From a virus (Duplodnaviria; Heunggongvirae; Uroviricota; Caudoviricetes): DNA of 38,459 nucleotides. The position numbers and the translations under genes were made by a program. Each line of letters opens with the position of its first letter. Positions within the stretch are counted from its first letter, which is position 1. The notes below the pieces were generated by a model. It saw only the letters and a program-made list of their open reading frames with translations, was not told where the DNA came from and ran no database searches. Positions 15,267-38,459 of the stretch are shown here, piece after piece. The stretch spans positions 1 to 38,459 of IMG/VR virus record IMGVR_UViG_2896607866_000012; one strand, 5' to 3'.

Positions 15267-15277
15267 AATTACCTCAG

Positions 15278-20451: not shown

Positions 20452-20530
20452 TTAGCCCCCTCTTAATTGCTGTTGGTCCTCTCAGATATGAGGGGAAGGG
20501 ATCTTAATGACAGTCTATTTATTATTTCAG

Positions 20531-20788
20531 TCAAACACTACCCTGTTGATGATTTCTCAGAAGCGAACTTGACTCCCAGGGGAAACTCAACTTTCCGTTA
20601 AAACCACCAGCAGACACTCGTTCAATTTCCACAGAAATATCACTGAGCCGTTCTTCAAGCTCTGCTTTTTCTTTTACCAGACGGTTATAGCGGCTTAGAT
20701 GAAGCTTTTGCTGCTCCAGCCAGTCTTCAAGCTGTTCAACAGTCATACCAGGGTTAAAAAAATATGGCTGCTGCTTTTCGCCCTGCAT
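20531..20788 (-). CDS. hypothetical coiled-coil protein (85 aa from internal ATG)
   Basis: ATG at 20788 preceded by GGAGG; the track's longer N-terminus (to 20857) overlaps a terminator hairpin and is rejected. Confidence 0.3.
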   Translation of the reverse strand: MQGEKQQPYFFNPGMTVEQLEDWLEQQKLHLSRYNRLVKEKAELEERLSDISVEIERVSAGGFNGKLSFPWESSSLLRNHQQGSV

Positions 20789-20800
20789 TATTGACCTCCA

Positions 20801-20828
20801 GAAAAGCAAAAACCCCGCCGAAGCGAGG
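20801..20828 (-). terminator. rho-independent terminator (tR'-like) downstream of Q
   Basis: Minus strand CCUCGC-UUCG-GCGGGG (one G-U pair) followed by UUUUUGCUUUUC. Confidence 0.45.
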
Positions 20829-20881
20829 TTTGTTATGATTTCGTTAACGGCAGACATACAAAGCCCATAGTTAGGAGAATC

Positions 20882-21691
20882 CTAACCATATTTTTTGAAA
20901 AATGCAAGCATCATGTCGCCATCTTCGGCGAAAATCATTTGTCTTGTCACTTTTCTCAATTGTGTCTCTGCATATGCTTCTTCCTGCCAGCACTTTGTAA
21001 CCAGTTTATCAATGACATCTGCATATCCTTTGTACCACTGATAATCCGTCAGGTCCGGTACCAGCTTCTGGACATGATGCCGCGCCAGTGTGGTTGGTAA
21101 ACGGCTAAACCGGTTTCCATTGCAACGCCCACAAATCTTATAAACAGGCGTGCCATGAAGCCGGGTCCTTTTTTCATCCAGGACAATACCTTTACCCTTA
21201 CACCCTCTGCACGCTGTGCTGACTTCTCCCTTACCATGACAATGCTGACATAGTTCCTTCACCCACTCCTCCTTGATAACAGATTCACCGCTTCTGGAGT
21301 GTTTCACCACTTCGCGCAATACATTATGAAATCCAGTACCAGCACAATGCTCACAGCGAGCCTTACTTGCCGCAGACCTGGAATAATCAGCAAAGGCAAA
21401 ATTCACAAGGTAAGGGATGAGCTGTAACCGGGTTTCTTCACTCAATTTATTCAATGTCGGATTATCCAGTGCCATCGCGTAATTGAGCAGACCTTCAATC
21501 GCAAACTGAGGATCCTGAACACCAACTTTTGCCAGGAATAAGGCAAATCCAAGCGGTGCTTTCGACTGCACCATCCCCTGCGCAGCCATCACATCCGTAA
21601 TCGTTAAACCACCCGAGCCTGTCGCCGGTGCGTCATCGCTCAGTTTTGGAGATTTTGGGGAGTAATATTTTGGTAAGGCTTCAAGGTTCAT
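20882..21691 (-). CDS. late antiterminator Q family protein
   Basis: 269 aa ORF with Cys-rich zinc-binding cluster immediately upstream of lysis genes. Confidence 0.8.
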   Translation of the reverse strand: MNLEALPKYYSPKSPKLSDDAPATGSGGLTITDVMAAQGMVQSKAPLGFALFLAKVGVQDPQFAIEGLLNYAMALDNPTLNKLSEETRLQLIPYLVNFAFADYSRSAASKARCEHCAGTGFHNVLREVVKHSRSGESVIKEEWVKELCQHCHGKGEVSTACRGCKGKGIVLDEKRTRLHGTPVYKICGRCNGNRFSRLPTTLARHHVQKLVPDLTDYQWYKGYADVIDKLVTKCWQEEAYAETQLRKVTRQMIFAEDGDMMLAFFKKYG

Positions 21692-21704
21692 GCTCGTTCT
21701 CCAC

Positions 21705-22385
21705 TTACGCCAGTACGCCTATTGCCAGCGCACGATCGATAAAACGAAATATCAGCTCCAGCAGGGAGCCATACTTCTCTTCAAATGCCACGGTATCCGC
21801 ATGCAGCTCGTCGTGATGCTTTCTGCACAAAGGCAACACAAAGAGGTCATGCGCTTTTGTACCCATTCCCCCCTGACCGTGGCCTATCAGGTGGTGAGGA
21901 TCATCAGCAGGCTTTCCACAACATGCGCACGGCTGTGTCTTAACCCAGCGCGTGTACTTTTCATTAACCCAGCGGCGACGTTTTGGGCGTAACATAAAAG
22001 ACTCCGGCGACTCCGGATCCACTTTCAGCGCCAGCACCTTTTTCGCCTTATCCTGGATGATGCTGGTGGCAGGAACCGAAGGCACAAGGTCACTTTCCCG
22101 GGTGACAGACGGCACAACAGGATTCGGTAATCTCAGTGCCTTACGGGCTGCGCTTTCCGGTAAGGCATCCGCCAGATCATTACGAACCAGCCACCAGCAC
22201 AGTTCCGGCATTGTCACAACGTGACTGTCATCAAAACCGAGATCCCGACGCACAACAGACAACACCCAGCGGGCACAGTTATCCGTTGCCATTGATTCCA
22301 GCCGTTCCGTGAACTGATCGCGCAGCTGGTTATCGCAGTGCCAGCACAGACGGATTGCGCCCGGAGCGTGTCGCATTGTTGTCAT
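21705..22385 (-). CDS. DUF968-like protein with C-terminal HNH-type motif
   Basis: 226 aa ORF; C-terminal CxxC...HH...H motifs; nin-region position. Confidence 0.5.
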   Translation of the reverse strand: MTTMRHAPGAIRLCWHCDNQLRDQFTERLESMATDNCARWVLSVVRRDLGFDDSHVVTMPELCWWLVRNDLADALPESAARKALRLPNPVVPSVTRESDLVPSVPATSIIQDKAKKVLALKVDPESPESFMLRPKRRRWVNEKYTRWVKTQPCACCGKPADDPHHLIGHGQGGMGTKAHDLFVLPLCRKHHDELHADTVAFEEKYGSLLELIFRFIDRALAIGVLA

Positions 22386-22415
22386 GTTCTCGCTGTGCCA
22401 GTCGGAATGAGGCCA

Positions 22416-22700
22416 CTAGCAGCCTTTTTCACGAAGTAACCAGCTTTCAAGACATTCCACGCCACCAGCACGACGGATCACTGCCTCATTGCGGAACACG
22501 GCCCGAACAGCAGGATCATCCGCCAGCGGTTGTGATGCCGCCGGAACGGCACCACTGGCAAAAGATGAATAACGTTCTGGCTCAGGCTCCAGCAGGACAC
22601 GCCCCTGCATAAACAGGGGCATCAGCTCTGAACCGGGTCTGAACAATACGATCCCCATACGCGGGGCAATTTCAGGGGTCAGTAATGCTCTCACGGTCAC
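22416..22700 (-). CDS. hypothetical protein
   Basis: 94 aa ORF in operon orientation; no family recognised. Confidence 0.25.
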   Translation of the reverse strand: MTVRALLTPEIAPRMGIVLFRPGSELMPLFMQGRVLLEPEPERYSSFASGAVPAASQPLADDPAVRAVFRNEAVIRRAGGVECLESWLLREKGC

Positions 22701-22701
22701 C

Positions 22702-23511
22702 TCAATGAACGGTATCGAGCAGCTTTAACAGCTCAGGGAATCGGGATTCGAAGAAATGCGGCTGCGTCTCGCGCGGATTTGCGGGACTGGTGATGTTCTT
22801 GCCGAACATGCAGCCTTTCGCTGTCAGCGACCAGAATTTTTTGATGTTGTTAATCGCGGTACGGCTGTATCGTTCGCGCTGCTCGACGATCCCCAGCTTC
22901 ACCATCTGGTGATATGCCTGATTAGCCGTCAGGCGGATACCATACTGCTTCAGCAGTGCACTCAGTGACAGCGTAGGGCGACTTGAGCCATCGGGTGCAT
23001 CGGCAGGAGCATCAATTGCATAGCGCGGAGCCAGATTCGGTAAGCCAACAGCCTCCTGGAGTTTCTGACAAGCCCCAAGCACAGATGAGTTAGACAGGTT
23101 TAATTCCCGACGCATAAAGTCCAGCAGAATCACACCAGCCTGCATCTTGTCAGCAGCCTGCCCGGATAATTTTTCCGGTGCGCTGGTTACCATATCGAAA
23201 GTACGGATCACCTTCAGATGGAATGACGGGCTGATCCACATTGCATAGGCATACACCAGTTCCTTGCAGACATACGTTCCCCGTTCATTTCCCCCATGAA
23301 TCACACTCACCGGGTCAACACCCAAATTCTGGGTGTTGGTCAATTCATGAACAAGCTCAACAGTTTGTTGGCTGGAAAGAAACTTTCCTGGCTCCTTGGT
23401 TCTGGCATTTGCACCAGATGCTACTGCTGCGCGATGCAGATCGTTCAGGCTGTAACGCCCATAAGCATCACGACGAACTTCAATACCATCAATGACCATC
23501 AGATTATTCAT
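22702..23511 (-). CDS. KilA-N domain protein (antirepressor-like)
   Basis: 269 aa ORF; N-terminal KilA-N-like region. Confidence 0.65.
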   Translation of the reverse strand: MNNLMVIDGIEVRRDAYGRYSLNDLHRAAVASGANARTKEPGKFLSSQQTVELVHELTNTQNLGVDPVSVIHGGNERGTYVCKELVYAYAMWISPSFHLKVIRTFDMVTSAPEKLSGQAADKMQAGVILLDFMRRELNLSNSSVLGACQKLQEAVGLPNLAPRYAIDAPADAPDGSSRPTLSLSALLKQYGIRLTANQAYHQMVKLGIVEQRERYSRTAINNIKKFWSLTAKGCMFGKNITSPANPRETQPHFFESRFPELLKLLDTVH

Positions 23512-23530
23512 ACTTCGTTTCTCCTCTTAA

Positions 23531-23920
23531 TCAGGCGGCTGCACCCGCCGGTTTCTCATACTTACTGATAGTGATCTCGACCTTCCCTTTCGGGATAACC
23601 GGTCCCCACTCCACCAGCATTCTTTTCACCTGACTGTCGTCTTCCCACACCCCCGCGTGGGTCAAGGCGTCAAACAGCGCCTTGTTATAGTTGTCCAGAT
23701 CGCGGATCCGGTTATCCGGAGGAAACAACACGATCTCCACTGAAGCAGGTGCCGACGTTGGTTTCGGCAGACGACGTAACTGTTCAACTATTGCTGCGCA
23801 CGCCGCGCTCTGAAATTTTCGCCCCGCCGCGCTTATCAGGCTCTTACCTGCAAACGCCCCTTTGTTGGGGTGTCGCCAGTACGTGTTCACGCTGGGCGGG
23901 AAAGGCAGGATCAGCTTCAT
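23531..23920 (-). CDS. rusA: Holliday junction resolvase RusA
   Basis: 129 aa ORF matching the RusA family in length and conserved acidic residues. Confidence 0.8.
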   Translation of the reverse strand: MKLILPFPPSVNTYWRHPNKGAFAGKSLISAAGRKFQSAACAAIVEQLRRLPKPTSAPASVEIVLFPPDNRIRDLDNYNKALFDALTHAGVWEDDSQVKRMLVEWGPVIPKGKVEITISKYEKPAGAAA

Positions 23921-24243
23921 ACTTTCAGGCCCCTCTTATGTAACCAGTGGGTTGCACGCAGCCTGGCGTTTTCCTCACCGGCAAGCAGTGAGCGGATAAT
24001 CCCGACCGCCTCGCTGTCGTCGTCCTTCACCGCGGTATGAAGCGTGATGCCCCGGGCCACGCCACGCTTTATCGTGATGACGCCTTTTTTCTCCAGTGCG
24101 CGAAGATGCTCCACCGCTGCATTCACTGAACGGTATCCCAGCATGGTTGCCACCTCCTGATTGGTTGGCGGGAAGCCACGTTCTTTCTGGTAAGAAATCA
24201 GCATATCCAGCACCTGCTGCTGGCATTGAGTTAATGTCGTCAT
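23917..24243 (-). CDS. LexA-like DNA-binding domain protein (no S24 peptidase domain)
   Basis: 108 aa; strongly resembles the LexA N-terminal winged helix (...PPT..EVA..LGYRSVNAAVEHLRALEKKGVI...) but ends before any catalytic Ser/Lys domain. Confidence 0.6.
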   Translation of the reverse strand: MTTLTQCQQQVLDMLISYQKERGFPPTNQEVATMLGYRSVNAAVEHLRALEKKGVITIKRGVARGITLHTAVKDDDSEAVGIIRSLLAGEENARLRATHWLHKRGLKV

Positions 24244-24893
24244 GCCGCCATCTCCCTGACCAGTTTTTCCGCCTGCTGGCGAACCTGCGCCAGAAAGGCC
24301 TCACCACATGCCTCAAGTTCATCGCGCCCGATGTAGCTGATTGCCGGTCCCTTCCAGGTCTTGTCGAAAACAGCAATAGCACCAGCGAAGAAAGCGCCTG
24401 TCGGCACCTGCTTCTCGTCCTTCGGGATAAACCAGGCTGGCAGTTCAAAACCAATACGCCCGCGAATAAAAGCAATATGGTCTGCATCTTCCGGCCACCA
24501 AACTTCGCTGGTGGCAGCTTTGATCAGGAAAACATAGCGCCCACCTTTATCACGCATGGCACTGGCATGTTTCATGATGTAACGCATGCCGGTGATGTAT
24601 TGCCCCTCATGCTGACTGGCGCGGCTGTACGGGGGATTACCAAAGGCAGCACCTTTAAGCTCCGCAAGACGTTCTGACCAGTCATGCGCCAGCGCGTTGT
24701 CTTCCGCAGTGTAATAAGCGGCACATTTGGCGTTATCACCATCAGTAAACAGATCCAGAACAAACGGGCCAAACAGGGTGTTAATTCCCAAGAAAATGTT
24801 GTCCGGCGTGCGCCACTGATCGCCCACTTCCTTCAGTTCATGGGCTGGTTTGTTCCGCAGCTCCACTAGCGCCTGGCAATATTTATTACTCAT
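24240..24893 (-). CDS. phage DNA N6-adenine methyltransferase (Dam-like)
   Basis: NPPY motif; ATG at 24893 overlaps upstream stop (TAATG); track start 24926 is GTG. Confidence 0.8.
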   Translation of the reverse strand: MSNKYCQALVELRNKPAHELKEVGDQWRTPDNIFLGINTLFGPFVLDLFTDGDNAKCAAYYTAEDNALAHDWSERLAELKGAAFGNPPYSRASQHEGQYITGMRYIMKHASAMRDKGGRYVFLIKAATSEVWWPEDADHIAFIRGRIGFELPAWFIPKDEKQVPTGAFFAGAIAVFDKTWKGPAISYIGRDELEACGEAFLAQVRQQAEKLVREMAA

Positions 24894-25387
24894 TAAGCCC
24901 CCACGTAATTCCCTGACAGATACCACTCTTCACCCGATGCAGCGCGCTTGCTGCTTTTCCGTAAGCACCGCTCACGATGCGCCAGAAAATTGTTTCGTTC
25001 TGGCTGGGAGTGGCTTTCACGGAATGCCTCCATCCACACCGTTGCAGCTCGACGGAATAAGCCCCTGGACTCCAGTTCTTCAGCCTGGCGGGTCAGGCAC
25101 AAAATCACCCGGGGGTCGTTAGTGCCGACATAGAAATTGCGCACAGGTCTGGTTTCACGAACAGATTGTGGTTCCGGCTCCTGCGCTCTCTCAGTCAGGC
25201 GCGGGAAATGTCTGCGTGTATCTCCTTCACAACGGTGAGCCACACGCCCACTCTGACGTAACTTGCTTGCTGACTGCAGAACGCGCTGCCGTGAGTAACC
25301 AGCAAAAGCATCCGCAATGTCTCCGGAAGTACACCCCGGATGGGCTTCAATGAATTTCTGAACTTCATTCAAAAGACTCATAATCAC
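24893..25387 (-). CDS. hypothetical protein
   Basis: 164 aa basic ORF downstream of the replication gene; no confident family. Confidence 0.3.
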   Translation of the reverse strand: MIMSLLNEVQKFIEAHPGCTSGDIADAFAGYSRQRVLQSASKLRQSGRVAHRCEGDTRRHFPRLTERAQEPEPQSVRETRPVRNFYVGTNDPRVILCLTRQAEELESRGLFRRAATVWMEAFRESHSQPERNNFLAHRERCLRKSSKRAASGEEWYLSGNYVGA

Positions 25388-26214
25388 CCCCTGAATCCTG
25401 CCGGGATCTGGCTGTAGTCCACGTTGTCGTAACTGGCTTTGAAGTACGGGTCCTCGCGTCTGGCTGCAGATACTGCAGGAACTTCCCAGGATTCTTCGAA
25501 ATGACGATCCGGACCAAAGAACGTGACAGCCTGTTTCACAAATTGTGTGCCGCTGTTACCCATCGCAGATACCCAGCCCGCGTAGCGTTTCACACCTTCC
25601 AGCATGGTTTCGGGGTTTACCCCCTCATTCAAACGGGCTTTCCAGGCTTTGAAGGCTGCAGATTTTGAATTGCCACCAGCACGTTTGGGATAGGCCAGCC
25701 ATGCCTGCTCAAACTCCGGAGAGTATTCCGGTCGGTTTGAACGAACTCGCACAGACTCATCAGCAGATGCACCAACAGCTATTGGGTCATTGACTGGTTC
25801 TTTGACTGGTTCTTTGACTGGTTCAAAAGAGTGACTGGTTCTGGGTGAATCTCCTGCACTACCCCCTGGTGCAACTCCTGCACTACCTGGTGAATTTGCT
25901 GCACCAGATAGTGAATTATTTGCACTACCCCCTAGTGAATCTCCTGCACCATCAAGATGAAGGAGATAGATATTACTTGAGTTACCTTTTTCACCTTTCC
26001 GGGTGACTTTTTTTACCAGCCCGGACTCACAAAGGGCCGCAATATGATTCATCACAGAACGTTTGCTAATCTCGCACTGGTCAGCAATATGCTGGTAGCT
26101 GGGCCAGCACTCACCCTGATCGCTGGCATTATCAGCCAGCTTGATCAGAACCAGTTTTCGCAATGGATTACCCACTCGAATTTTCATCGCTTTAACCATC
26201 AGCTCCATACTCAT
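25384..26214 (-). CDS. replication initiator-like protein with N-terminal HTH (lambda O-like architecture)
   Basis: 276 aa; N-terminal winged-helix/HTH, central low-complexity linker encoded by tandem DNA repeats, conserved C-terminal domain; start overlaps upstream stop (ATGA). Confidence 0.55.
   Translation of the reverse strand: MSMELMVKAMKIRVGNPLRKLVLIKLADNASDQGECWPSYQHIADQCEISKRSVMNHIAALCESGLVKKVTRKGEKGNSSNIYLLHLDGAGDSLGGSANNSLSGAANSPGSAGVAPGGSAGDSPRTSHSFEPVKEPVKEPVNDPIAVGASADESVRVRSNRPEYSPEFEQAWLAYPKRAGGNSKSAAFKAWKARLNEGVNPETMLEGVKRYAGWVSAMGNSGTQFVKQAVTFFGPDRHFEESWEVPAVSAARREDPYFKASYDNVDYSQIPAGFRG
25791..25950. repeat. iteron-like tandem repeats inside replication gene (candidate ori)
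   Basis: TGACTGGTTCTT x3 plus one degenerate copy (25791..25842), then four or five 21-24 bp repeats of (T)CTCCTGCACTACC(CC)CTGGTGAA (25848..25950). Confidence 0.45.
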
Positions 26215-26447
26215 GCTGCACCTCCGAGATGCTTCATGTTTTTTCCGGAGCGAAAGGCTATAAGCGGCATACTGACGCGGTAATTACGGCCCAGCGGTTC
26301 ACAAACCACCTTCTGACATTCACGGTCAACCAGGCTAACACATAGAACATGCCCTGCAGGCGTGGTGTACCACTGCCCAACTGTAGGAATTGATATTTTT
26401 TTACGCTGAAGCAAACGGCAAATATTGAGGATCAACGGATTAAGCAT
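26211..26447 (-). CDS. hypothetical protein
   Basis: 78 aa ORF translationally coupled between flanking genes. Confidence 0.3.
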   Translation of the reverse strand: MLNPLILNICRLLQRKKISIPTVGQWYTTPAGHVLCVSLVDRECQKVVCEPLGRNYRVSMPLIAFRSGKNMKHLGGAA

Positions 26448-27276
26448 GACGATGCCCTCCGCTGATATTCAGGAGACGGTGAATATGAAAATTAGCCTTA
26501 TCCGCCAAACGGATACGTTCAGCCTGCAAGTTAAGAAGGGTTTCTACCAGAACCTGATGCGCCTGCGGATCCGAAAGAGTTACCTTGCGCAGAGCACGTA
26601 GTGCAGTTGTTACATAACTGAGTTTATGTAAGTCTTCATCATTCAGACGAGTGAGGGCTGGGACAGTAGCCATGATGGCAGCCTCCGATAACAGTGAATT
26701 ACCTTCACCACCGGAAACGCCAATTTCGCTGGTGGTGAACTGAACGGGGTTGGCGTAACCGGCGTTATCGGAAACCGGCGCACCTTTCAGTGCCCCCGTC
26801 CAGCCCACCATAATTTGGGTGTGCGCAGACGCAGACGATAAAAAAGACGCTGGCGCGTCATATATCGCCGATAACATTTCCAGGACGCCAATCCCGGCAC
26901 CCGCTTTATAAGGTGCCTGAACAGTGTAACGTCCCGGAATGGCAGAATCAATGTGCTGGTGGTCCTTCACACTCAACAAAATCACGCCTGAATTTCCACA
27001 AAGGACTAAAGCACTCATGCGGGTAGTCTTTGCGAAGATAGATAACGCGCTGTGTTTCTGGCTCCCAACGAATAACATGGACATAAAGCCCTCTTCCGTC
27101 ACGAAACCAGCGGTTAAGTTCCTGCACAACTCGCCCCCCACAGTCAGGTAAAGTTCTCTGTGGTTACTTACAGCCAGGTGATTTGGTAATCTGCATTCAT
27201 GCCGTAACAACAGGTGTTCAGCGACACTGACCACCAGCTGTTGCGACAAACGGTTATTTGCCGTTAAACTGTTCAT
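26440..27276 (-). CDS. hypothetical protein, 278 aa
   Basis: ORF in early-right operon between CII-like and replication genes; no recognised motif. Confidence 0.35.
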   Translation of the reverse strand: MNSLTANNRLSQQLVVSVAEHLLLRHECRLPNHLAVSNHRELYLTVGGELCRNLTAGFVTEEGFMSMLFVGSQKHSALSIFAKTTRMSALVLCGNSGVILLSVKDHQHIDSAIPGRYTVQAPYKAGAGIGVLEMLSAIYDAPASFLSSASAHTQIMVGWTGALKGAPVSDNAGYANPVQFTTSEIGVSGGEGNSLLSEAAIMATVPALTRLNDEDLHKLSYVTTALRALRKVTLSDPQAHQVLVETLLNLQAERIRLADKANFHIHRLLNISGGHRHA

Positions 27277-27836
27277 GCGTTAGTTTCTCCACAGACACAA
27301 AACGCCACGACGCCCGTAGCTGCACACTCGCGGGCGTCACTCTTTTCTGGAGCGCAAAAGATTTTGTAGACCAGTGCTGCATGCTCCTGGAGCTTCGAAA
27401 TTGACAGATACAACTCATCATTAATTGCTGTCTGCTCGTGTGGCTCCACGACCCCATCTTCGATTGCCGAACGAATCTGCTTTGAGTAATTCCCGATCTG
27501 TTCGATGACTTCCAGCAGGCGCTGGTTTATATCGGCGTTCTCTACTTCCTCAATTTCAGGAAGCGATACGAACACCCCACCAGCAGACTGTGCGACAGCA
27601 TCCGCAATGTAGTGAGTGCCAGCCGCGCGCTGTAAAACCATTGCCCATCCCAGCGGGAAAATCTGATCGCCATCGGCACGAAGGCGGTTAAATAATGCGT
27701 TCTCTGTTACATCCAGCCAGTCAGCTGCTTCAGCGTAACCACCCGGCAACGCTGCGATAGTTTTTCTGACAGCTTTCACGTACCACTCAGGCTGTTTTTC
27801 TACTTTCCAGTGATACTTACCCACGGTTAGCCTCAT
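27273..27836 (-). CDS. CII-like regulatory protein (CP76/YdaT-like)
   Basis: 187 aa ORF immediately downstream of cro-like gene; family from memory. Confidence 0.45.
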   Translation of the reverse strand: MRLTVGKYHWKVEKQPEWYVKAVRKTIAALPGGYAEAADWLDVTENALFNRLRADGDQIFPLGWAMVLQRAAGTHYIADAVAQSAGGVFVSLPEIEEVENADINQRLLEVIEQIGNYSKQIRSAIEDGVVEPHEQTAINDELYLSISKLQEHAALVYKIFCAPEKSDARECAATGVVAFCVCGETNA

Positions 27837-27867
27837 CGTTCTGTGGTTAAAAATTGAAGGTGTTCTG

Positions 27868-28068
27868 TTAATCTTTCGGATAGATATCCGGTCTTAAGTC
27901 AGATTTCGTAATTGCACCTGACGTGCATTGCTCAAGTTTTTTCGCCAGCACAAAACTGGCTTTTTTATAACCATTGAAAACCAGCCGTAAGTAGCCAGGT
28001 GTTGAGCCAACTTTTCCGGCCAACTCGCCCTGCTGTTCTTTGGTTAAAGAGTCCCAATACGCTTTCAT
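27868..28068 (-). CDS. Cro-like HTH regulator (YdaS-like)
   Basis: 66 aa from ATG 28068 with GGGGG SD upstream; divergent from CI; the longer 101 aa track ORF extends into the operator region. Confidence 0.55.
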   Translation of the reverse strand: MKAYWDSLTKEQQGELAGKVGSTPGYLRLVFNGYKKASFVLAKKLEQCTSGAITKSDLRPDIYPKD

Positions 28069-28073
28069 ACAAT

Positions 28074-28142
28074 ATGTACCCCCGGTATACATATTACATG
28101 ATTGAAATGAACCTTCAAGATACTTGTACCTTATCGGTACAA
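28074..28142. promoter_or_regulatory. immunity-region operators and PR promoter
   Basis: Perfect palindrome TTGTACC-N5-GGTACAA at 28124..28142; ATGTA-N9-TACAT at 28074..28092; minus-strand -35 TTGAAG (28113..28118) and -10 TAATAT (28091..28096), 16 bp spacer. Confidence 0.5.
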
Positions 28143-28158
28143 AGGTTTTAATTTCGTT

Positions 28159-28833
28159 ATGAAAACAATCCATGACATCCGGCGGTCTAACGCCAGAAAA
28201 CTGAGAGATGGTGTTGGCGGAAATTCATCCTTTGCCACCATGATTGATCGCGAGCCAACCCAAACCAGCAGGTTTATGGGGGATGGCGCTACTAAAAATA
28301 TCGGTGACAGCATGGCACGGCACATCGAAAAATGTTTCGACCTGCCTGTCGGATGGCTCGATCAAGAACACCAGACAACGAACATCACAAAAAAACCTGA
28401 TGTTTCAATCACTAATAAACAAATCACATTAGTCCCTATCATATCATGGGTACAGGCCGGAGCATGGAAAGAAGTTGGATATTCTGAGGTTGATTTGAGC
28501 ACAGCAGAAACGTATCCCTGCCCTGTACCCTGTGGGGAAATGACTTATATCTTGCGGGTGATAGGTGATTCAATGATTGATGAGTACCGCCCGGGAGACA
28601 TGATTTTTGTCGATCCTGAAGTACCTGCCTGCCACGGTGACGACGTTATTGCATTGATGCACGATACAGGTGAAACCACCTTCAAAAGGTTGATAGAAGA
28701 TGGGACACAGCGTTATCTCAAAGCGTTAAACCCAAACTGGCCTGAGCCTTACATTAAGATCAACGGTAATTGCTCTATAATTGGAACTGTGATTTTCTCA
28801 GGAAAACCAAGAAGATACAAAATCAAAGCCTAA
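28159..28833 (+). CDS. CI-like repressor with S24 (LexA/UmuD-type) peptidase domain
   Basis: 224 aa; N-terminal DNA-binding region, C-terminal GDSM...K motifs; divergent to cro-like gene. Confidence 0.85.
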   Translation: MKTIHDIRRSNARKLRDGVGGNSSFATMIDREPTQTSRFMGDGATKNIGDSMARHIEKCFDLPVGWLDQEHQTTNITKKPDVSITNKQITLVPIISWVQAGAWKEVGYSEVDLSTAETYPCPVPCGEMTYILRVIGDSMIDEYRPGDMIFVDPEVPACHGDDVIALMHDTGETTFKRLIEDGTQRYLKALNPNWPEPYIKINGNCSIIGTVIFSGKPRRYKIKA

Positions 28834-28845
28834 TCAATGTTTATG

Positions 28846-28868
28846 AACCTGCTTCGGCAGGTTTTTTT
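28846..28868 (+). terminator. rho-independent terminator after repressor gene
   Basis: AACCTGC-TTCG-GCAGGTT followed by T7 run. Confidence 0.65.
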
Positions 28869-28872
28869 ATAC

Positions 28873-28907
28873 TTGACAATGTACCCATGAGATACATAAT
28901 GTACCCA
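28873..28907 (+). promoter_or_regulatory. PL-like early-left promoter with operator repeats
   Basis: TTGACA (28873..28878), 16 bp spacer, CATAAT (28895..28900); two ATGTACCCA direct repeats at 28879..28887 and 28899..28907. Confidence 0.5.
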
Positions 28908-29026
28908 AGAGAAACAACAAACAGGCAGGACGCCCACGAAGTAGCCGCCTGGGGCATATGAAGTCCAGGATGATTCGTTGAGTCATGTTGTGCCACTAGG
29001 TACTCATGTTAAAGCAGGTGTATGAA

Positions 29027-29302
29027 ATGAAAGTCCAGATTTTAAACAATAACTGTGAAGTCGTTTGGTCATACGACATAGCCGCCCATGTAGATCAGAG
29101 CGGCGATAGCTGGGCCAATGGGAAACATCAGATTATGGCTGGAGTTGTATTCTCTTTACGCCGTGCTTTAGAACAGGCTGAAGTCTTTCCATCAGGCCCT
29201 GAATGGAAATGGCCTTTTTCTATTTGTCCAAATTCGGAGAGTACATTTCAGAAAATTGGTCAGAAAGTCGCACTCGAAGAGCATCAGCCAACTGTTTCCT
29301 GA
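29027..29302 (+). CDS. hypothetical early-left protein
   Basis: 91 aa from ATG 29027 with AGGTG SD; overlaps a convergent minus-strand ORF that is split by IS911, so coding status is uncertain. Confidence 0.3.
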   Translation: MKVQILNNNCEVVWSYDIAAHVDQSGDSWANGKHQIMAGVVFSLRRALEQAEVFPSGPEWKWPFSICPNSESTFQKIGQKVALEEHQPTVS

Positions 29303-29421
29303 TTTTTTCAGGTAACTCGTCGGCATCGCAGAAACAACAACGCTCGATCTGAAGTGGCACACTGAATTTGGCCACCTGAACAGAGGTGATATGCTCACCT
29401 CAGAACAACACAGGTGCTCCA

Positions 29422-30590
<1,169 letters not shown>

Positions 30591-30717
30591 CCACTTCAAT
30601 CATGTTGAAAGCCGATTCGTAGAACTGTTTTTGCTGAGTGTCGCTGAGACAGGAAAAGAGCGACGTTACGATGATTTTATTAATTGCATTATCAAGTTCT
30701 TTTTCATCAAAAGTCAT

Positions 30718-31154
30718 TTGATTTTCCTTTTATGTATACGGGCTTAAAAGGATACCACCGAGCCTGAAGTGGTGAAAAGACAGGCACATAACAGCTAAGT
30801 ATTTTCAACCAAAGAGAATCCTTAGCGTTGTGGTGAATGCGGCTCAGCGCACGCGGGTTAAGGTTGAGGCTGACAGTCGACCTTCTGTGGATACCCACCC
30901 GTCTGGTGTGCAACCTTCGCCAGGCACCGGGAGGCACCCGGCACCACAACTTTATGCTGTGTGTAGTCCTGGCGGTACCAGTTTGTACCCTTGCTTCCGG
31001 CTGGTACCGTCCTTTTTACAAAACAGAGAAGAGCATCACCGGACGACGGGCTCATAACCCAATCCATCCGGGCGGCTGCCACCGCAGGTGTTCTTCTCTG
31101 TTTTGTGGAGAAACTAATCGGCCTTGCAGGGTCGATATGATGAGGAGCAGCAAA
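30718..31154 (+). other. GC-rich structured non-coding block (candidate regulatory RNA)
   Basis: No credible ORF; nested inverted repeats including a 15/16 bp stem (31018..31033 with 31091..31106) and CGGTACCAG / CTGGTACCG (30973..30981 / 31001..31009). Strand assigned by operon direction only. Confidence 0.3.
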
Positions 31155-31256
31155 ATGGCTAGCGAACGCAGTACTGATGTGCAGGCATTTATCGGGGAGC
31201 TGGACGGCGGCGTATTTGAAACCAAAATCGGCGCAGTTCTCGGTAATGACTCCAAC

Positions 31257-31760
31257 TTACTGATAGTGTTTTATGTTCAGATAATGCCCGATGACCTTGT
31301 CATGCAGCTCCACCGATTTTGAGAACGACAGTGACTTCCGTCCCAGCCTTGCCAGATGTTGTCTCAGATTCAGATTATGTCGCTCAATGCGCTGAGTGTA
31401 ACGCTTGCTGATAACGTGCAGCTTTCCCTTCAGGCGTGATTCATACAGCGGCCAGCCATCCGTCATCCATACCACGACCTCAAAGGCCGACAGCAGGCTC
31501 AGAAGACGCTCCAGTGTGGCCAGAGTGCGTTCACCGAAGACGTGCGCCACAACCGTCCTCCGTATCCTGTCATACGCGTAAAACAGCCAGCGCTGACGTG
31601 ATTTAGCACCGACGTAGCCCCAATGTTCGTCCATTTCAGCGCAGACAATCACATCACTGCCCGGTTGTATGCGCGAGGTTACCGACTGCGGCCTGAGTTT
31701 TTTAAGTGACGTAAAACCGTGTTGAGGCCAACGCCCATAATGCGTGCACTGGCGCGACAT
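31257..31760 (-). CDS. insB: IS1 InsB frame (InsAB' transposase by frameshift)
   Basis: 167 aa ORF ending ...[10 protein letters not shown], 15 nt from IS end. Confidence 0.85.
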
Positions 31761-31954
31761 CCGACGCCATTCATGGCCATATCAATGATTTTCTGGTGCG
31801 TACCGGGCTGAGAGGCGGTGTAAGTGAACTGTAGTTGCCATGTTTTACGGCAATGAGAGCAGAGATAGCGCTGATGTCCGGCAGTGCTTTTGCCGTTACG
31901 CACCACGCCTTCAGTAGCGGAGCAGGAAGGACATCTGATGGAAATGGAAGCCAC
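31679..31954 (-). CDS. insA: IS1 InsA
   Basis: 91 aa [23 protein letters not shown]...; starts 56 nt from IS end. Confidence 0.9.
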
Positions 31955-32358
31955 GCAAGCACCTTAAAATCACCATCATACACTAAATCAGTAAGTTGGC
32001 AGCATTACCCAGTTCTCAGTGAAGTCGCTTCCGGTGTGATGAACACGAAAACCAAAGGTAAGGTCTCACTCAACCTGGAAATCGAACCATTTGATGAGAA
32101 CCGTGTGAAAATCAAACACAAACTCTCATATGTTCGCCCGACTAACCGTGGGAAAATTTCCGAAGAAGACACCACCGAAACGCCGATGTATGTCAATCGC
32201 GGTGGTCGCCTGACTATTCTGCAGGAAGACCAGGGACAATTACTGACTCTTGCCGGTGAGCCTGACGGAAAACTCCGCGCAGCAGGTCATTAATATCGTT
32301 CTTAATTAACTGATTATTTATCTCATCACTGAATATCTTAATATAGTGAGGACTTATT

Positions 32359-33006
32359 ATGTCTCAGTACTTAGACGCAACCGCAATTAATCAAATCCAT
32401 GCCCTTATTTCTGCTCAGGGTGTTAATGAAATTATCAGTAAGATTGGTGCCGATGCTGTGGCATTGCCTGAGAATTTCCGCATTCATGATCTGGAAAAAT
32501 TTAATTTAAATCGCTTCCGTTTCCGTGGTGCGCTTTCCACTGCCAGCATCGATGACTTTACCCGTTATTCTAAAGATCTTGCAGATGAAGGCACCCGCTG
32601 CTTTATCGATGCTGATAATATGCGTGCCGTCAGTGTGCTTAACCTGGGTACTATTGATGAACCAGGTCACGCAGATAACACCGCCACTCTCAAACTGAAA
32701 AAGACAGCACCGTTCTCTGCCCTGTTGTCTGTTAACGGCGAGCGTAACTCCCAGAAATCACTGGCAGAATGGATTGAAGACTGGGCCGACTACCTTGTGG
32801 GCTTTGATGCTAATGGTGACGCCATTCAGGCAACAAAAGCGGCTGCGGCTATCCGTAAAATCACGATTGAAGCAAACCAGACCGCTGATTTTGAAGATAA
32901 TGACTTCAGCGGCAAACGCTCCCTGATGGAATCTGTCGAAGCGAAGACCAAAGACATTATGCCAGTGGCATTTGAATTTAAATGCGTTCCGTTTGAAGGT
33001 CTGTAA
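32359..33006 (+). pseudogene. yfdQ: yfdQ-like (DUF2303) gene, 3' end displaced by IS66-family insertion
   Basis: 215 codons then a stop supplied by the IS terminus (gTAAg); the remaining 59 codons resume in frame at 35765 after the 8 bp repeat, reconstructing 274 aa. Confidence 0.6.
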
Positions 33007-33084
33007 GCGCCCCATCAGCGACGTCTTGTGAAAATTGTCCTGTCTGGCAACAATCGCGCCCATCTATATTGATGGACACGAACG

Positions 33085-33759
33085 ATGAATTCCCAGACAA
33101 CAAAAGATATTCCCTGCTTCCGTTCTTATTTGCCTGATGCCCTGCGTTTAAGATTTGAAGATAAACTGACCATCCGGGCCATCGCTCAGCGTCTGGGTCT
33201 CAGTCATTCCACAATACATACGCTTTTTCAGCGATTTCTTGCATCCGGTATCGCATGGCCATTGCCCGATTCAGTTTCATTCGCTCAACTTGACGCCATC
33301 CTTTATGCCAACAGAAAGAAGGAATTAACAGAGCCTCAAATCAGAGAAGGCTCATGGCGAAAAGAACGGCGAACCAGCTATAGCCGTGAATTTAAGGTCC
33401 GTCTGGCTAAGCAGGCGTTACAGCCTGGGGCTGTTGTTGCCCGGATCGCCAGAGAACACGATATCAATAATAACCTGCTGTTTAAATGGAAAAGCCAGTA
33501 CGAGGACGGCTTACTGAGCGATGATGACATACAGGAATGCATGCCTGTCCCGGTGGCTCTGACTGATACGCCGGAGCCGACCAGACCAGTTACAAATCCC
33601 TTCTGGCGTAACAAGCATGATGAGCGCCCTGAGGGGGCTCCCGGAAACGTCCCACGGTGCGAGCTGCATCTTAAATCAGGTGTGGTAAAACTGTTTGACC
33701 CTCTCACTCCGGAACTGTTACGGGCGCTAATCCGCGAAATGAAAGGGGGTATCCGATGA
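33085..33759 (+). CDS. IS66-family TnpA-like accessory protein
   Basis: C-terminal half shows the IS66 Orf1 pattern (YSREFKVRLAKQALQPGAVVARIAREHDINNNLLFKWKSQYEDG); N-terminal extension, so true start uncertain. Confidence 0.55.
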   Translation: MNSQTTKDIPCFRSYLPDALRLRFEDKLTIRAIAQRLGLSHSTIHTLFQRFLASGIAWPLPDSVSFAQLDAILYANRKKELTEPQIREGSWRKERRTSYSREFKVRLAKQALQPGAVVARIAREHDINNNLLFKWKSQYEDGLLSDDDIQECMPVPVALTDTPEPTRPVTNPFWRNKHDERPEGAPGNVPRCELHLKSGVVKLFDPLTPELLRALIREMKGGIR

Positions 33760-34103
33760 TAACGCTGCCGACCGGTACCAAAATCTGGATCATCGCTGGC
33801 ATCACAGATATGCGTTGTGGCTTCAATGGCCTGGCTTCGAAGGTGCAGAACACGCTGAAAGATGACCCGTTCTCCGGGCATATCTTCGTCTTCCGGGGCC
33901 GCAGTGGCAAAATGGTGAAAATACTGTGGGCCGATCGTGACGGGTTATGCCTGTTCGCCAAACGCCTGGAACGGGGCCGCTTCGTCTGGCCGGTGACCCG
34001 GGAAGGGAAAGTGCACCTGACGCCAGCTCAGTTATCCATGCTACTGGAGGGGATCGCGTGGCAACATCCCAAACGGACAGAACGGCCTGGCATCCGGATA
34101 TAA
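33756..34103 (+). CDS. IS66-family TnpB (Orf2)
   Basis: 115 aa; start overlaps tnpA stop (ATGA). Confidence 0.8.
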   Translation: MITLPTGTKIWIIAGITDMRCGFNGLASKVQNTLKDDPFSGHIFVFRGRSGKMVKILWADRDGLCLFAKRLERGRFVWPVTREGKVHLTPAQLSMLLEGIAWQHPKRTERPGIRI

Positions 34104-34122
34104 CCCGTGATAAAACAAGGGA

Positions 34123-35723
34123 ATGAACAATGAACTCCCCGATGATATTGAGCTGCTTAAAGCCATGTTGCGTAAGCAACAGAGTCGGCTTCGACAGTAT
34201 GCCTGTCAGGTCGCGGGCTATGAGCAGGAAATTGAACGGCTGAAAGCGCAACTCGACAGGTTGCGTCGTATGTTGTTCGGCCAGAGTTCAGAGAAAAAGC
34301 GTCATAAGCTTGAAAATCAGATCCGACAGGCAGAAAAACGACTGTCGGAACTGGAAAACCGGCTGAACACAGCCAGAAATCTTCTGGAAGATGCATCGTC
34401 AGTCACAGATTCACCTGACACCAGTCCCCCGTCAGAAAACCCGATCGCCAGTAAGCCTGAATCCCCGGGACGAAAATCTTCACGAAAACCGCTGCCGGCA
34501 GAACTTCCCCGGGAGACACATCGCCTTCTGCCTGCTGAAACCAGTTGCCCGGCCTGTGGAGGTGTTCTGAAAGAAATGGGGGAAACAATCTCAGAGCAAC
34601 TGGATATCATTAATACCGCCTTTAAAGTTATCGAAACCATACGTCCCAAACTGGCCTGTAGCCGGTGTGATGTCATCGTTCAGGCACCACTTCCCCTAAA
34701 CCGATCGAACGCGGTTATGCCAGTGCAGGGTTACTTGCACGGATCCTGGTCAGCAAATATATGGAACATATCCCTTTATATCGCCAGTCAGAAATATACG
34801 CGCGACAGGGCGTGGAGCTGAGCCGTAATACCATGGTGCGCTGGGTATCAGAAATGGCAGACAAACTCCGTCCTCTGTATATAGCGCTGAATGACTATGT
34901 TCTGGAGGCAGGAAAGGTGCACGCAGATGACACTCCGGTGAAAGTACTGGCCCCGGGGAACGGAAAGACGAAAACGGGTCGTCTGTGGGTATACGTCAGG
35001 GATGATCGTAATGCGGGTTCATCCCTGCCGGCAGCCGTCTGGTTCGCGTATTCGGCAGATCGCAAAGGAGAACATCCGCAGCTCCACCTGGCAAAGTATC
35101 AGGGCGTACTGCAGGCTGATGCCTATGCAGGTTATAACGTACTGTACGAAACGGGCCGGGTGAAGGAAGCCGGGTGCCTGGCCCACGCCCGCCGAAAAAT
35201 CCATGACGAGGATGTGCGCCGTCCGACAGAAATGACTCAGGAAGCGCTCAGACGGATAGCAGAGTTATACGACATAGAAGCGGAGATACGTGGCAGTCCG
35301 GCAGAGGAACGGCTTGCAGTCAGAAAAGCCAGAAGCGTCCAGTTGATGCAGTCGTTGTACGACTGGATACAGTTGCAGAGGAAAACGCTGTCGAAACATG
35401 CGGAGATGGCGAAGGCGTTCGACTATATCCTGAATCACTGGAATGCGCTGAACGAGTTCTGTCGTGACGGCTGGGTGGAAATAGACAACAACATCGGTGA
35501 AAACGCGTTACGATCGGTGGCGGTTGGAAGAAAAAATTATCTCTTTTTCGGCTCAGACAAGGGAGGAGAAAGTGCGGCGATCATCTACAGTCTGCTGGTC
35601 ACCTGCAAACAGAACGAAGTGGAGCCGGAGGACTGGTTGCGCGAAGTGATCGAGAAGCTCAATGACTGGCCGTCGAACCAAGTGCATGAACTGCTGCCCT
35701 GGAACTTCTCGTCTGTAAAATAA
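34123..35723 (+). pseudogene. IS66-family transposase TnpC, frameshifted
   Basis: N-terminal zinc-finger part (34123..34821) and catalytic part (34761..35723) are in different frames; switch lies at C4 run 34693..34696. Confidence 0.7.
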
Positions 35724-35755
35724 TCCTTACGCTACGTACTTCTCGGGGCGCTTAC

Positions 35756-35944
35756 GAAGGTCTGAAAGAACGTCCGTTTAAATTACGCCTCAGCATTATC
35801 ACTGGCGATCGTCCTGTACTGGTTCTGCGCATTATTCAGCTGGAAGCGGTGCAGGAAGATATGGCTAACGAATTTCGTGATCTGCTTGTTGAGAAATTCA
35901 AAGACAGCAAAGTAGAAACCTTTATTGGTACTTTCACCGCCTGA
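35756..35944 (+). pseudogene. 3' remnant of yfdQ-like gene
   Basis: In-frame continuation of 32359..33002 across the IS; stop TGA 35942..35944. Confidence 0.55.
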
Positions 35945-35956
35945 TTTCATTACTGC

Positions 35957-35978
35957 AAATGCCCCTGCGGGGGCATTT
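35957..35978 (+). terminator. stem-loop downstream of yfdQ-like gene (possible terminator)
   Basis: AAATGCCCC-TGCG-GGGGCATTT, followed by only a weak U tract. Confidence 0.3.
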
Positions 35979-36071
35979 ATGGAAACGTAATTAACTCAAT
36001 AATCACCGGATGGTGAGGGCTTCCTTTTACCCAAACTCAGCGCAGTGCAGCGCATATACGTGGAGAACAAA

Positions 36072-36267
36072 ATGTCATTTATTAAAACTTTTTCCGGGAA
36101 GCATTTTTATTATGACAAGATAAATAAAGACGACATCGTGATTAACGATATCGCGGTTTCCCTTTCAAATATCTGTCGCTTTGCCGGTCATCTTTCTCAC
36201 TTCTACAGTGTCGCCCAACATGCGGTGCTTTGCAGCCAGCTGGTGCCGCAGGAATTTGCTTTTGAAG
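36072..36267 (+). pseudogene. yfdR: yfdR-like HD-domain gene, 5' fragment truncated by IS600-like element
   Basis: GGAGAA SD then ATG 36072; MSFIKTFSGKHFYYDKINKDDIV...QEFAFE then runs into the IS end at 36268; no 3' portion in window. Confidence 0.55.
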
Positions 36268-36310
36268 TGAGGTGTACTGGCAATAGCGGACACTACCATT
36301 TGTTCTTTTT

Positions 36311-37129
36311 TTAAGCAGCCATCTGATGATATTTTTCCCTGAAGGCTGCCGGGGAGATATTCCCCAGACGAGAGTGACGACGCTGACGATTGTAGAAAAT
36401 CTCAATGTATTCCCGTATTACTGAGATGGCTTCATCCCGGTTATTAAAACGATAGTGGCTCAGGCTCTCATTTTTCAGCGTTCCCCAGAAGCTTTCCATC
36501 GGAGCGTTGTCGTAACAGTTACCTTTACGCGACATTGATGTTTTCAGACCAAACTGCTCCTGTATGACCCGGTAATCGTATGCGCAGTACTGTGAACCTC
36601 GATCAGAGTGGTGGATTAGCCCGGCAGGTGGGCGCTGGCTCCTGAGCGCCATAAACAGGGCTTTACCTGTCAGCTCTTTTGTCATGCGCTCTCCCATGGC
36701 GTAGCCGACAATTTCGCACGTATAAACATCTTTGATGCCAGCGAGGTACAACCATCCCTCCTGTGTGGCAACATACGTCAGGTCCGCCACCCAGACTTGA
36801 TTTGGTGCTGTAGGAGCGAACGTCTGGTTCAGCAGATTTGGCGCAACTGGCAGATTGTGGTTCGGGTTCGTAGTCGCTCTGAACTTGCGTTTCTGCTTAC
36901 AGCGTAGCCTTAGCTCCTTACGAAGACGTGCCAGTCGGTCACGACCAACGATGATGCCATTCTCTGCCAGCTCCGTCTGGAGCCGCCGGGTTCCATATGT
37001 TTCGCGAGTGCGGATATGTGCCACCTTAATCTCCAGTTTTAGCCGCTCATCACTTTGTTTTCTGTCTGAGGGTTCATGCTGTACCCAGTTGTAATAACCG
37101 CTCCTGGATACACCAAATACCTGACACAT
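36311..37129 (-). CDS. IS600-like OrfB (DDE catalytic domain)
   Basis: 272 aa in -1 frame relative to OrfA; DDE motifs. Confidence 0.8.
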   Translation of the reverse strand: MCQVFGVSRSGYYNWVQHEPSDRKQSDERLKLEIKVAHIRTRETYGTRRLQTELAENGIIVGRDRLARLRKELRLRCKQKRKFRATTNPNHNLPVAPNLLNQTFAPTAPNQVWVADLTYVATQEGWLYLAGIKDVYTCEIVGYAMGERMTKELTGKALFMALRSQRPPAGLIHHSDRGSQYCAYDYRVIQEQFGLKTSMSRKGNCYDNAPMESFWGTLKNESLSHYRFNNRDEAISVIREYIEIFYNRQRRHSRLGNISPAAFREKYHQMAA

Positions 37130-37164
37130 CGCTTCAATGGGAAATTGTTGTCGCCATTGTTCGA

Positions 37165-37467
37165 TTAACGCGTATTTTTCAGCGACTCCTGTGCAAAATA
37201 CGCTGTTGCTTTTTTTAATATATCTCGCTCAAGGCGAGCTTCATTTAACGCCTTACGCAGTTGCAGAATTTCAGATTCCAGTTCAGCCACCGTGCGGGAA
37301 CCAGGAGTACCGAGCCCTTTTCTGGCGGCGGTAACCCATTGTCCTAAAGTGCCTTCAGGAAGGGATAATCGGGAAGCGCCTTCACTGATCGAAAGTTGAT
37401 TTTCAAGAACCGTTCTGACAGCTTCGGCTTTGAACTCTTTAGAGTAACGTTGGGTTTTTCTGCTCAT
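37165..37467 (-). CDS. IS600-like OrfA
   Basis: 100 aa [26 protein letters not shown]...; contains TTA_AAA_AAA slippery run (plus 37210..37216). Confidence 0.8.
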
Positions 37468-37531
37468 TATTAGCTCCTTCTGATGCCATTCTATTTCAGG
37501 AAGGAGTGTCCGTTAAACTCAGGCTACCTCA

Positions 37532-38459
37532 CAAAAGCCGGATCGGATTCTGGCTTCAACATTTCGCAGGAATGCAACTAAGAGACATTACTGAATCAAA
37601 AATTTATTCAGCAATGCAGAAAATGACGAACCGGCGTCATGAGGAAAACTGGAAACTCAGGGCAGAAGCATGCAGAAAAAAAGGGAAACCTGTTCCAGAA
37701 TACACGCCAAAACCAGCGTCGGTTGTAACGAAGGCTACGCATCTTTCATTTATAAAGGCCCTACTAAGAGCCGCAGAGCGTGAATGGAAAATGCTGGATA
37801 AGGCACCAATTATTAAAGTGCCTCAACCAAAGAATAAACGGATCCGCTGGCTGGAGCCCCATGAAGCACAAAGGCTGATTGATGAATGTCCGGAGCCATT
37901 AAAGTCTGTTGTTGAATTTGCACTGGCAACAGGCTTAAGACGCTCGAACATCATCAACCTTGAATGGCAACAAATAGATATGCAGCGCCGGGTGGCATGG
38001 ATAAACCCGGAAGAGAGTAAATCAAACCGCGCAATCGGCGTTGCGCTGAATGATACTGCATGTCGCGTTTTGAAAAAACAAATCGGGAATCATCACCGTT
38101 GGGTATTTGTGTACAAGGAAAGCTGTACCAAACCAGACGGAACGAAAGCGCCAACAGTAAGGAAGATGCGGTATGACGCAAACACAGCCTGGAAAGCGGC
38201 GCTGAGACGGGCTGGTATTGATGATTTCAGATTTCACGACTTGAGACACACCTGGGCAAGTTGGCTGGTTCAAGCCGGAGTCCCGTTGTCAGTGTTACAG
38301 GAAATGGGAGGCTGGGAGTATATCGAAATGGTTCGTCGATATGCTCACCTTGCACCTAATCACCTTACCGAACACGCACGGCAAATAGACTCGATCCTGA
38401 ACCCATCGGTCCCAAATTTGTCCCAGTCAAAAAATAAGGAAGGTACTAATGATGTGTAA
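37532..38459 (+). pseudogene. phage tyrosine integrase, 5'-truncated at IS600-like boundary
   Basis: Catalytic-domain signature R...HDLRHT...Y present; arm-binding N-terminus absent; the track ORF start (GTG 37506) lies inside the IS; stop TAA at 38457..38459. Confidence 0.75.

Follow-up and report, generated by a model that had tools for sequence, protein, structure and literature searches.

Organization of the locus

The analysed window (the whole stretch of 38,459 nucleotides) carries, at 33003-35755 on the plus strand, a 2753-bp insertion sequence which interrupts the prophage gene yfdQ. The sequence-only reading had recognized an IS66-family element of this length with these terminal repeats; both are present. 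Nucleotide identity, TnpA and TnpC identify the element specifically as ISSfl3, and the Pfam domains of its three proteins are in agreement. Over its full length it shares 99.6-99.9% of its nucleotides with annotated ISSfl3 copies, the name resting on copies whose transposase is called ISSfl3 by PGAP; by ISfinder convention, sequences sharing >95% nucleotide or >98% amino acid identity belong to the same element. In comparison with the ISSfl3 of Shigella flexneri, gene order and termini are the same, and the window copy differs by one missing C within tnpC and a handful of SNPs, so that it measures 2753 bp vs the 2754 bp of intact copies. The same element is labelled 'ISSfl4' in the annotation of pCP301. 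The papers found to mention ISSfl3 contained nothing relevant to the present case.

The left terminal inverted repeat, GTAAGCGCCCC (33003-33013, plus strand), has its exact reverse complement, GGGGCGCTTAC, at the other end (35745-35755). The match is perfect for 11 of 11 positions and extends imperfectly to about 22 bp, with 16 of 22 matching. Terminal repeats of the IS66 family are reported to start with 5'-GTAAGCG (ISfinder; Han et al. 2001), as GTAAGCGCCCC does at both ends of this element.

Three genes, all on the plus strand, follow each other in the order typical of the family. The first, tnpA (33085-33759), codes for 224 aa with Pfam HTH_23 and HTH_Tnp_1 domains, a product exactly equal to the protein 'ISSfl3 orfA [Shigella flexneri]', seen on at least 1000 contigs. 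Its stop codon overlaps the start of tnpB (ATGA; 33756-34103), which encodes 115 aa with a TnpB_IS66 domain and is found, as an exact protein, in 3094 collection blocks. A 19-nt spacer separates tnpB from tnpC, which occupies 34123-35723 once the missing base is restored. The repaired TnpC (533 aa) is identical to WP_004967149.1, an 'IS66-like element ISSfl3 family transposase', and has the following domains: DDE_Tnp_IS66 (residues 198-483, E = 2.5e-101), zf-IS66 (139-183), LZ_Tnp_IS66 and DDE_Tnp_IS66_C. The prototypes IS679 and IS66 are likewise reported to have three consecutive ORFs, a tnpA/tnpB overlap, GTAAGCG termini and 8-bp target duplications (ISfinder; Han et al. 2001, J Bacteriol 183:4296). 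The window element is a different member, its TnpA being longer (224 aa) and provided with an extra N-terminal HTH_23.

Insertion into yfdQ

The element is flanked on both sides by the 8-bp sequence GAAGGTCT (32995-33002 and 35756-35763), a perfect target-site duplication of the length expected for IS66 and also observed for other ISSfl3 copies. The 5' part of yfdQ (DUF2303) appears in the ORF list at 32359-33006, plus strand: codons 1-215, ending in F-E-G-L, are followed by a TAA contributed by the first bases of ISSfl3. The 3' part, 59 codons plus stop, is stranded at 35765-35944 on the same strand. When the IS and one copy of GAAGGTCT are removed, an 825-nt ORF of 274 codons is obtained, 99.8% identical in nucleotide sequence to yfdQ of E. 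coli K-12; the proteins, aligned as the sequence-only reading had proposed, differ by a single amino acid. The reconstructed protein matches DUF2303 (PF10065) over residues 7-272 of 274 (E = 4e-93, 311.9 bits), and orthology is further indicated by the order yfdP-yfdQ-yfdR, the same as in the K-12 cryptic prophage CPS-53 (KpLE1). The two genes differ in that the window gene is split after codon 215 and lies in a prophage located elsewhere, with the integrase beside proA. Phage mEp460 and Stx2c-converting phages carry the gene yfdQ as well. An exact look-up of a 226-aa DUF968 fragment returned no record.

The joined flanks (54 nt, with a single GAAGGTCT) have an exact match in yfdQ of K-12, which thus represents the empty site. 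The probability of a chance match is about 1.5e-5 for the 8-bp flanks and about 2e-7 for the 11-bp termini; these low values, together with the exact empty site, exclude chance as the source of the repeats. The duplication and the truncation of yfdQ, 59 codons before its end by an IS-supplied stop, are as originally proposed.

An insertion of ISSfl3, with the one-base deficit either following it or not real, very probably accounts for the split gene. In this account, a standard ISSfl3, with tnpA, tnpB and tnpC, transposed into yfdQ of a Shigella flexneri lineage, the target gene belonging to the early-left part of an SfV/CPS-53-like prophage which is degraded and adjoins proA. The DDE transposase cleaved the two strands 8 bp apart, and GAAGGTCT was duplicated when the gaps were repaired; YfdQ is cut after residue 215, the stop codon coming from the IS end. 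At least three sequenced strains have inherited the insertion.

The C run of tnpC and its history

As written, tnpC changes frame at a run of four C (34693-34696, plus strand), which is a run of five in all intact references. Codons 1-191, with the leucine-zipper and zf-IS66 domains, are read in the original frame (34123-34695), and codons 193-533, with DDE_Tnp_IS66 and the C-terminal element, in a frame shifted by one base (34698-35723), so that the domains are split at codon 191/192. Past the run, translation from the tnpC start proceeds in the wrong frame until it meets a stop at 34821, for a product of 232 aa. Restoring one C gives the continuous 533-aa TnpC described above, as had been predicted. 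A k-mer specific for the C4 version is CACCACTTCCCCTAAACCGATCG.

A comparison with reference copies had been suggested, as a two-ORF arrangement would point to programmed frameshifting. Such a functional tnpC, with the ribosome or the RNA polymerase shifting frame at the C run in the style of the IS3 or IS1 families, has in its favour only the coincidence of the frame change with a short homopolymer, and is rejected as extremely improbable. Five C were found in four out of four reference copies, some of them only 93% identical; ISSfl3 references and these more distant relatives encode TnpC as a single continuous ORF of 1602 nt. A C4 run was found in none of 67 copies from 5426 complete E. coli genomes, and CTT-CCC-CTA does not correspond to an X-XXY-YYZ slippery heptamer. 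Four C is far below the run lengths known to give transcriptional slippage, and recoding is not known among IS66-family elements.

Over 12.1 kb, the window and CP024470.1 agree at 100% of positions. The insertion and its duplication recur in UGYT01000001.1 and UGYQ01000001.1, two sister genomes of Shigella flexneri, in which the run has five C and tnpC is intact, with 533 aa; the exact 215-aa product of the 5' part of yfdQ likewise occurs in two S. flexneri sisters. Over 12.1 kb the window has no private SNP with respect to the sisters, and the C run is its sole private difference. Since the sisters share the insertion and have five C, the loss of one base would be later than the insertion, or else a consensus error: the C4 run is private to one assembly, CP024470.1, and either arose after insertion or is unreal. 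The opposite order, in which the copy was already defective when a transposase acting in trans moved it into yfdQ, could draw on C4 copies at five other loci (L017, L019, L020, L023, L025), each with its own perfect 8-bp duplication, and on a distinct tnpC-disrupted variant, with a 5-bp duplication, at no fewer than ten loci in CP026836.1. It is effectively refuted by the C5 sisters, as a defect preceding the insertion would require that both sisters had reverted to C5, or that the very same base pair had been hit twice independently; it retains a very small probability.

The choice is thus between an error of the long-read consensus, in which one base of a C5 run was not called, which appears somewhat likelier, and a genuine, strain-specific and very recent slippage mutation following insertion, a plausible though less favoured reading which would leave the ISSfl3 copy non-autonomous. 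An undercall is suggested by the distribution of the C4 product. The exact 232-aa protein was found on only 7 contigs, all long-read and all >50 kb, and not in short-read assemblies; for tnpB of the same IS, 2424 of the 3094 blocks hold only contigs <5 kb. A search for the C4-specific tail peptide among 5.8 billion proteins found the junction on long-read contigs only, and a look-up of the 320-aa downstream ORF returned, among the matches listed, only noisy long-read assemblies, with 8 blocks of short contigs indexed beyond those listed. The cluster members listed are either cut by the contig end, with C5 in the two that read through the run, or show different frameshifts. The absence of C4 from short-read assemblies is weak evidence for a C4 carried by a minority of copies, since variants of that kind make assemblers collapse or break; searches of short-read and Sanger data are blind to a minority C4 copy, and are to be taken as suggestive, not decisive. 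Related assemblies point the same way. In CP026824.1, which contains the same C4 product, the essential gene rpoC is broken, a G4 run having lost one base to become G3. The ISSfl3 copies of the related batch to which this assembly belongs show 39 single-base indels, each of them a deletion from a G/C run of at least 4, with no insertions and no indel in 25 A/T runs. The most frequently affected run is the one at IS position 1691, corresponding to the C run of the window; its count, 19 of 28, is inflated, because many loci were retrieved via frameshift-dependent products, and an unbiased tnpB sample gives 1 of 10.

A genuine mutation agrees better with the quality of the window, which is otherwise clean of 1-nt indels, across about 38 kb, in the comparisons made: with a sister genome and a Logan contig assembled from short reads (1-17548), with E. 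coli relatives (17001-25459) and with the sister genomes (26359-38459). These comparisons rule out a generally indel-riddled assembly, and the other G/C runs of at least 5 agree with the comparators in 48 cases out of 48. Homopolymer slippage is, moreover, a standard mutational route. The S. flexneri plasmid CP102205 also has C4, in an element otherwise free of indels, and 8 related S. flexneri plasmids from three sources share it at a common plasmid locus. Other tnpC frameshifts occur nearby in Sanger-era or short-read data (P0004 and P0047 in strain 2457T, P0048 in Logan), which indicates that genuine decay of tnpC is common. Against a mutation, the absence of private SNPs in 12.1 kb implies a very short branch for a site-specific event; the same C4 call recurs on many unrelated backgrounds, yet is confined to long-read assemblies; and the indel spectrum of the related batch consists purely of deletions in G/C runs, the C run of tnpC being the most affected. 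Hence, of the proposal that the copy is frameshifted and may be immobile, the one-C deficit stands; a biological frameshift, and with it immobility, is not established, the sisters having C5 and C4 being seen in long-read assemblies only.

Defective copies and significance

Should the C4 run be real, the predicted product would be a 232-aa protein with leucine-zipper and zinc-finger domains and no catalytic DDE domain. Transposition of the copy within yfdQ would then be predicted to depend on TnpC made by a different ISSfl3.

Element, target and mechanism are all already known, and the case is an ordinary one whether the C4 run is an artefact or a mutation. Its biological weight is small, the multiplication of IS elements and the decay of prophage genes into pseudogenes being textbook traits of Shigella. 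A practical caution does follow: since the sisters are intact and undercalls in related assemblies fall most often on this C5 run, a frameshifted transposase in one long-read assembly, without read support, should not be counted as IS decay.

The general idea that tnpC-defective ISSfl3 derivatives are non-autonomous elements, amplified in trans in Shigella by intact copies, is considered unlikely. Under it, and with a real C4 run, the copy within yfdQ would be a newly made member of the non-autonomous pool, and its 232-aa product might occupy the IS ends in competition with full-length TnpC. The multi-locus variant in CP026836.1 is the only part of these observations possibly worth more work. 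In that variant tnpC is split by a 5-bp tandem duplication (ACTGC); it occupies at least ten different loci, at least three of which show their own perfect 8-bp duplications.

Insertion of ISSfl3 into yfdQ

An IS66-family element of 2753 bp occupies positions 33003-35755. The repeat scan and the raw sequence show that 35745-35755 is the exact complement of GTAAGCGCCCC at 33003-33013, with imperfect pairing beyond this core (16 of 22 positions), and that GAAGGTCT lies immediately outside each end, at 32995-33002 and 35756-35763. The coordinates, terminal repeats and 8-bp duplication proposed in the sequence-only reading were each confirmed.

The element interrupts yfdQ, a prophage gene of the DUF2303 type. 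The 5' part (32359-33006) encodes 215 residues ending in FEGL, its TAA stop being supplied by the IS terminus; the last 59 codons and the stop are found at 35765-35944. Excising the element in silico together with one of the two GAAGGTCT copies restores an 825-nt ORF, which is 99.8% identical to the annotated E. coli K-12 yfdQ; the 274-aa product differs from it by one amino acid and matches Pfam DUF2303 across its full length. A 54-nt string joining the two flanks is found unchanged in K-12 yfdQ, where GAAGGTCT occurs once; an exact empty site of this kind is the classical proof of insertion with target duplication. A DDE-type IS66-family element has therefore entered yfdQ by an 8-bp staggered cut, duplicating its target and splitting the gene. 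The truncation, the IS-derived stop and the stranded 3' frame, all noticed before any database search, agree with the ORFs and with the K-12 site. YfdQ deprived of its final 59 residues is probably non-functional. Phage mEp460 and Stx2c-converting phages have intact yfdQ homologues.

In a megablast search of 5,426 complete E. coli genomes, full-length matches showed 99.6-99.9% identity, and their transposase is annotated as 'IS66-like element ISSfl3 family transposase', with tnpA and tnpB accessory genes beside it; the pCP301 annotation names the same element ISSfl4. The Pfam domains are HTH_23 and HTH_Tnp_1 in TnpA, TnpB_IS66 in TnpB, and LZ_Tnp_IS66, zf-IS66, DDE_Tnp_IS66 and DDE_Tnp_IS66_C in the repaired TnpC. 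TnpA is identical to the 'ISSfl3 orfA [Shigella flexneri]' protein, found on at least 1000 contigs. The near-identical annotated copies, the domains and this exact match support the earlier IS66-family assignment and specify it as ISSfl3. The tnpA and tnpB frames share ATGA; 19 nt separate tnpB from tnpC. The element has all the family hallmarks (ISfinder; Han et al. 2001): a set of three ORFs, termini of the GTAAGCG type and a target duplication of 8 bp. The first observation thus holds and its interpretation is largely right, yet ordinary: the IS is catalogued and the prophage gene is known. Shigella is a genus famous for IS expansion.

Frame change in tnpC

Base-by-base alignment with four reference copies, including ones at only 93% identity, shows four Cs (C4) at 34693-34696, one short of the five (C5) of the references, where tnpC is a single continuous 1602-nt ORF. 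Adding one C yields a 533-aa protein identical to WP_004967149.1; that a fifth C would restore a continuous frame had been anticipated from the sequence alone. The frame is lost at codon 191/192, past the zinc finger (residues 139-183) but short of the DDE domain (198-483). Since the references have one ORF and C4 is found in none of the 67 ISSfl3 places in the 5,426 E. coli genomes, a conserved two-ORF design of tnpC is ruled out; the local CTT-CCC-CTA does not qualify as a slippery heptamer.

By exact look-up, the truncated 215-aa YfdQ was found in one short-read contig as well as in three chromosomes. Over the 12.1 kb compared, CP024470.1 and the window are 100% identical. Two sister genomes, UGYT01000001.1 and UGYQ01000001.1, whose proteins are labelled Shigella flexneri, share this IS insertion to the base pair, duplication included, yet they have C5, and their tnpC is intact at 533 aa. 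In these 12.1 kb the sisters have 4-5 private SNPs apiece and the window none, the C-run being its sole private difference. As sisters with the identical insertion carry C5, the loss of one base is either later than the insertion or unreal.

Consensus error or mutation

We lean towards reading C4 as a long-read consensus artefact; a genuine mutation is a serious and only somewhat less probable alternative. The exact 232-aa C4 product is found on 7 contigs only (CP024470, four of the related CP0268xx assemblies, one plasmid and PSSP01), each above 50 kb and from an NCBI assembly of long-read style, whereas the exact TnpB of ISSfl3 is found in 3,094 collection blocks, 2,424 of them with only contigs below 5 kb, a comparison in which short-read assemblies are blind to a minority C4 copy. 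Among 5.8 billion proteins, the 'PLPLNRS' junction of the C4-specific out-of-frame tail was found on a long-read contig only, in a protein shifting frame three times within about 40 codons. CP026824.1, with the same exact C4 product, has also lost one nucleotide from a G4 run in the essential rpoC (position 10464 of locus L018), leaving 512 + 895 aa. This must be a consensus or assembly error, so that the whole assembly is prone to G/C-homopolymer undercalls. Among the ISSfl3 copies retrieved from this assembly batch, 39 of 39 single-base indels are deletions in G/C runs of at least 4 (16 such runs), with no insertions and none in 25 A/T runs; being all deletions, confined to G/C runs and scattered differently between copies, they form a technical, not biological, spectrum. 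The run most often hit is IS position 1691, the window's C-run, although this count is inflated by locus retrieval and falls to 1/10 in an unbiased tnpB sample. Next comes the G4 of the right terminal repeat (IS 2744-2747, window 35745-35748), called G3 in 8 of 27 CP0268xx copies (L017, L018, L027, L060-L063, L066), more likely by the same undercall; if real, it would change the end bound by the transposase.

A genuine mutation is supported by the assembly of the window itself, where no further 1-nt indel was seen in any region compared: 1-17548 (against a short-read contig of the Logan collection and a sister genome), 17001-25459 (against E. coli relatives) and 26359-38459 (against both sisters). 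G/C runs of at least 5 elsewhere in the window agree with the comparators in 48 of 48 cases. CP102205 has C4 and no other indel, C4 recurs in eight related plasmids of S. flexneri drawn from three sources, and both 2457T and a Logan contig have real tnpC frameshifts of other kinds a few codons off. On balance, the apparent inactivation of the transposase in the window copy is more likely technical in origin.

In different assemblies, at least five other distinct tnpC frame disruptions lie no farther than about 100 bp from the C-run (P0004, P0046-P0050; equivalent to window ~34660-34780), among them those of S. flexneri 2457T ('...CDVIGTTSS*' and a deletion at 'GLL|H') and of a Logan short-read contig. 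The same stretch is the end point of many short-read contigs, which, together with the disruptions, suggests real polymorphism between copies.

Multi-copy variants and prophage context

If C4 is real, the window copy would lack catalytic TnpC and depend on a helper copy. Mobilisation of tnpC-defective ISSfl3 in trans is plausible at the least: copies with C4 at five further loci are each flanked by an 8-bp duplication of their own, although some of these C4 calls may themselves be artefacts. All ISSfl3 copies fetched from CP026836.1 (at least 10 loci; L026-L035, L016) share a 5-bp tandem duplication, ACTGC, at IS position 2106 (window ~35107), which leaves tnpC ORFs of 348 (or 334) + 187 aa. 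Not being homopolymeric, it is real and cannot be an artefact. At L030, L034 and L035 the copy is flanked by its own perfect 8-bp duplication, at some others by a near-perfect one, and the spread of the variant implies either amplification in trans of a tnpC-defective copy or homogenisation by gene conversion. Another non-homopolymer variant, a deletion of 7 bp in the region where tnpB meets tnpC (IS positions 1120-1126), recurs in several ISSfl3 copies at different loci of CP026845.1 (L065-L067, L069).

The window represents a defective prophage of the SfV/CPS-53-like type, with a Mu-like tail, a lambdoid early region and an integrase adjoining proA. About 9 kb of the early-left region hold four IS elements: an IS911-like (IS3-family) element and an IS1 copy just upstream of yfdP (~29350-30600 and ~31200-32000), ISSfl3, and a 1264-bp IS600 (36268-37531, minus strand; 99.8% identical to the IS600 in L011). 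IS600 cuts the yfdR homologue (36072-36267) after about 65 codons, K-12 homology stopping at 36267, so that the gene directly downstream of yfdQ is likewise IS-inactivated. The large terminase subunit (15278-17011, minus strand) is split into 330 + 246 aa where E. coli relatives have 577 aa; short-read Logan contigs show this split too, and it is therefore real. The DUF968 gene (21705-22700, minus strand) is disrupted by a substitution, not an indel. Past the end of the tail fibre, the sister loci continue with IS1 and then ykgEFG-like genes.
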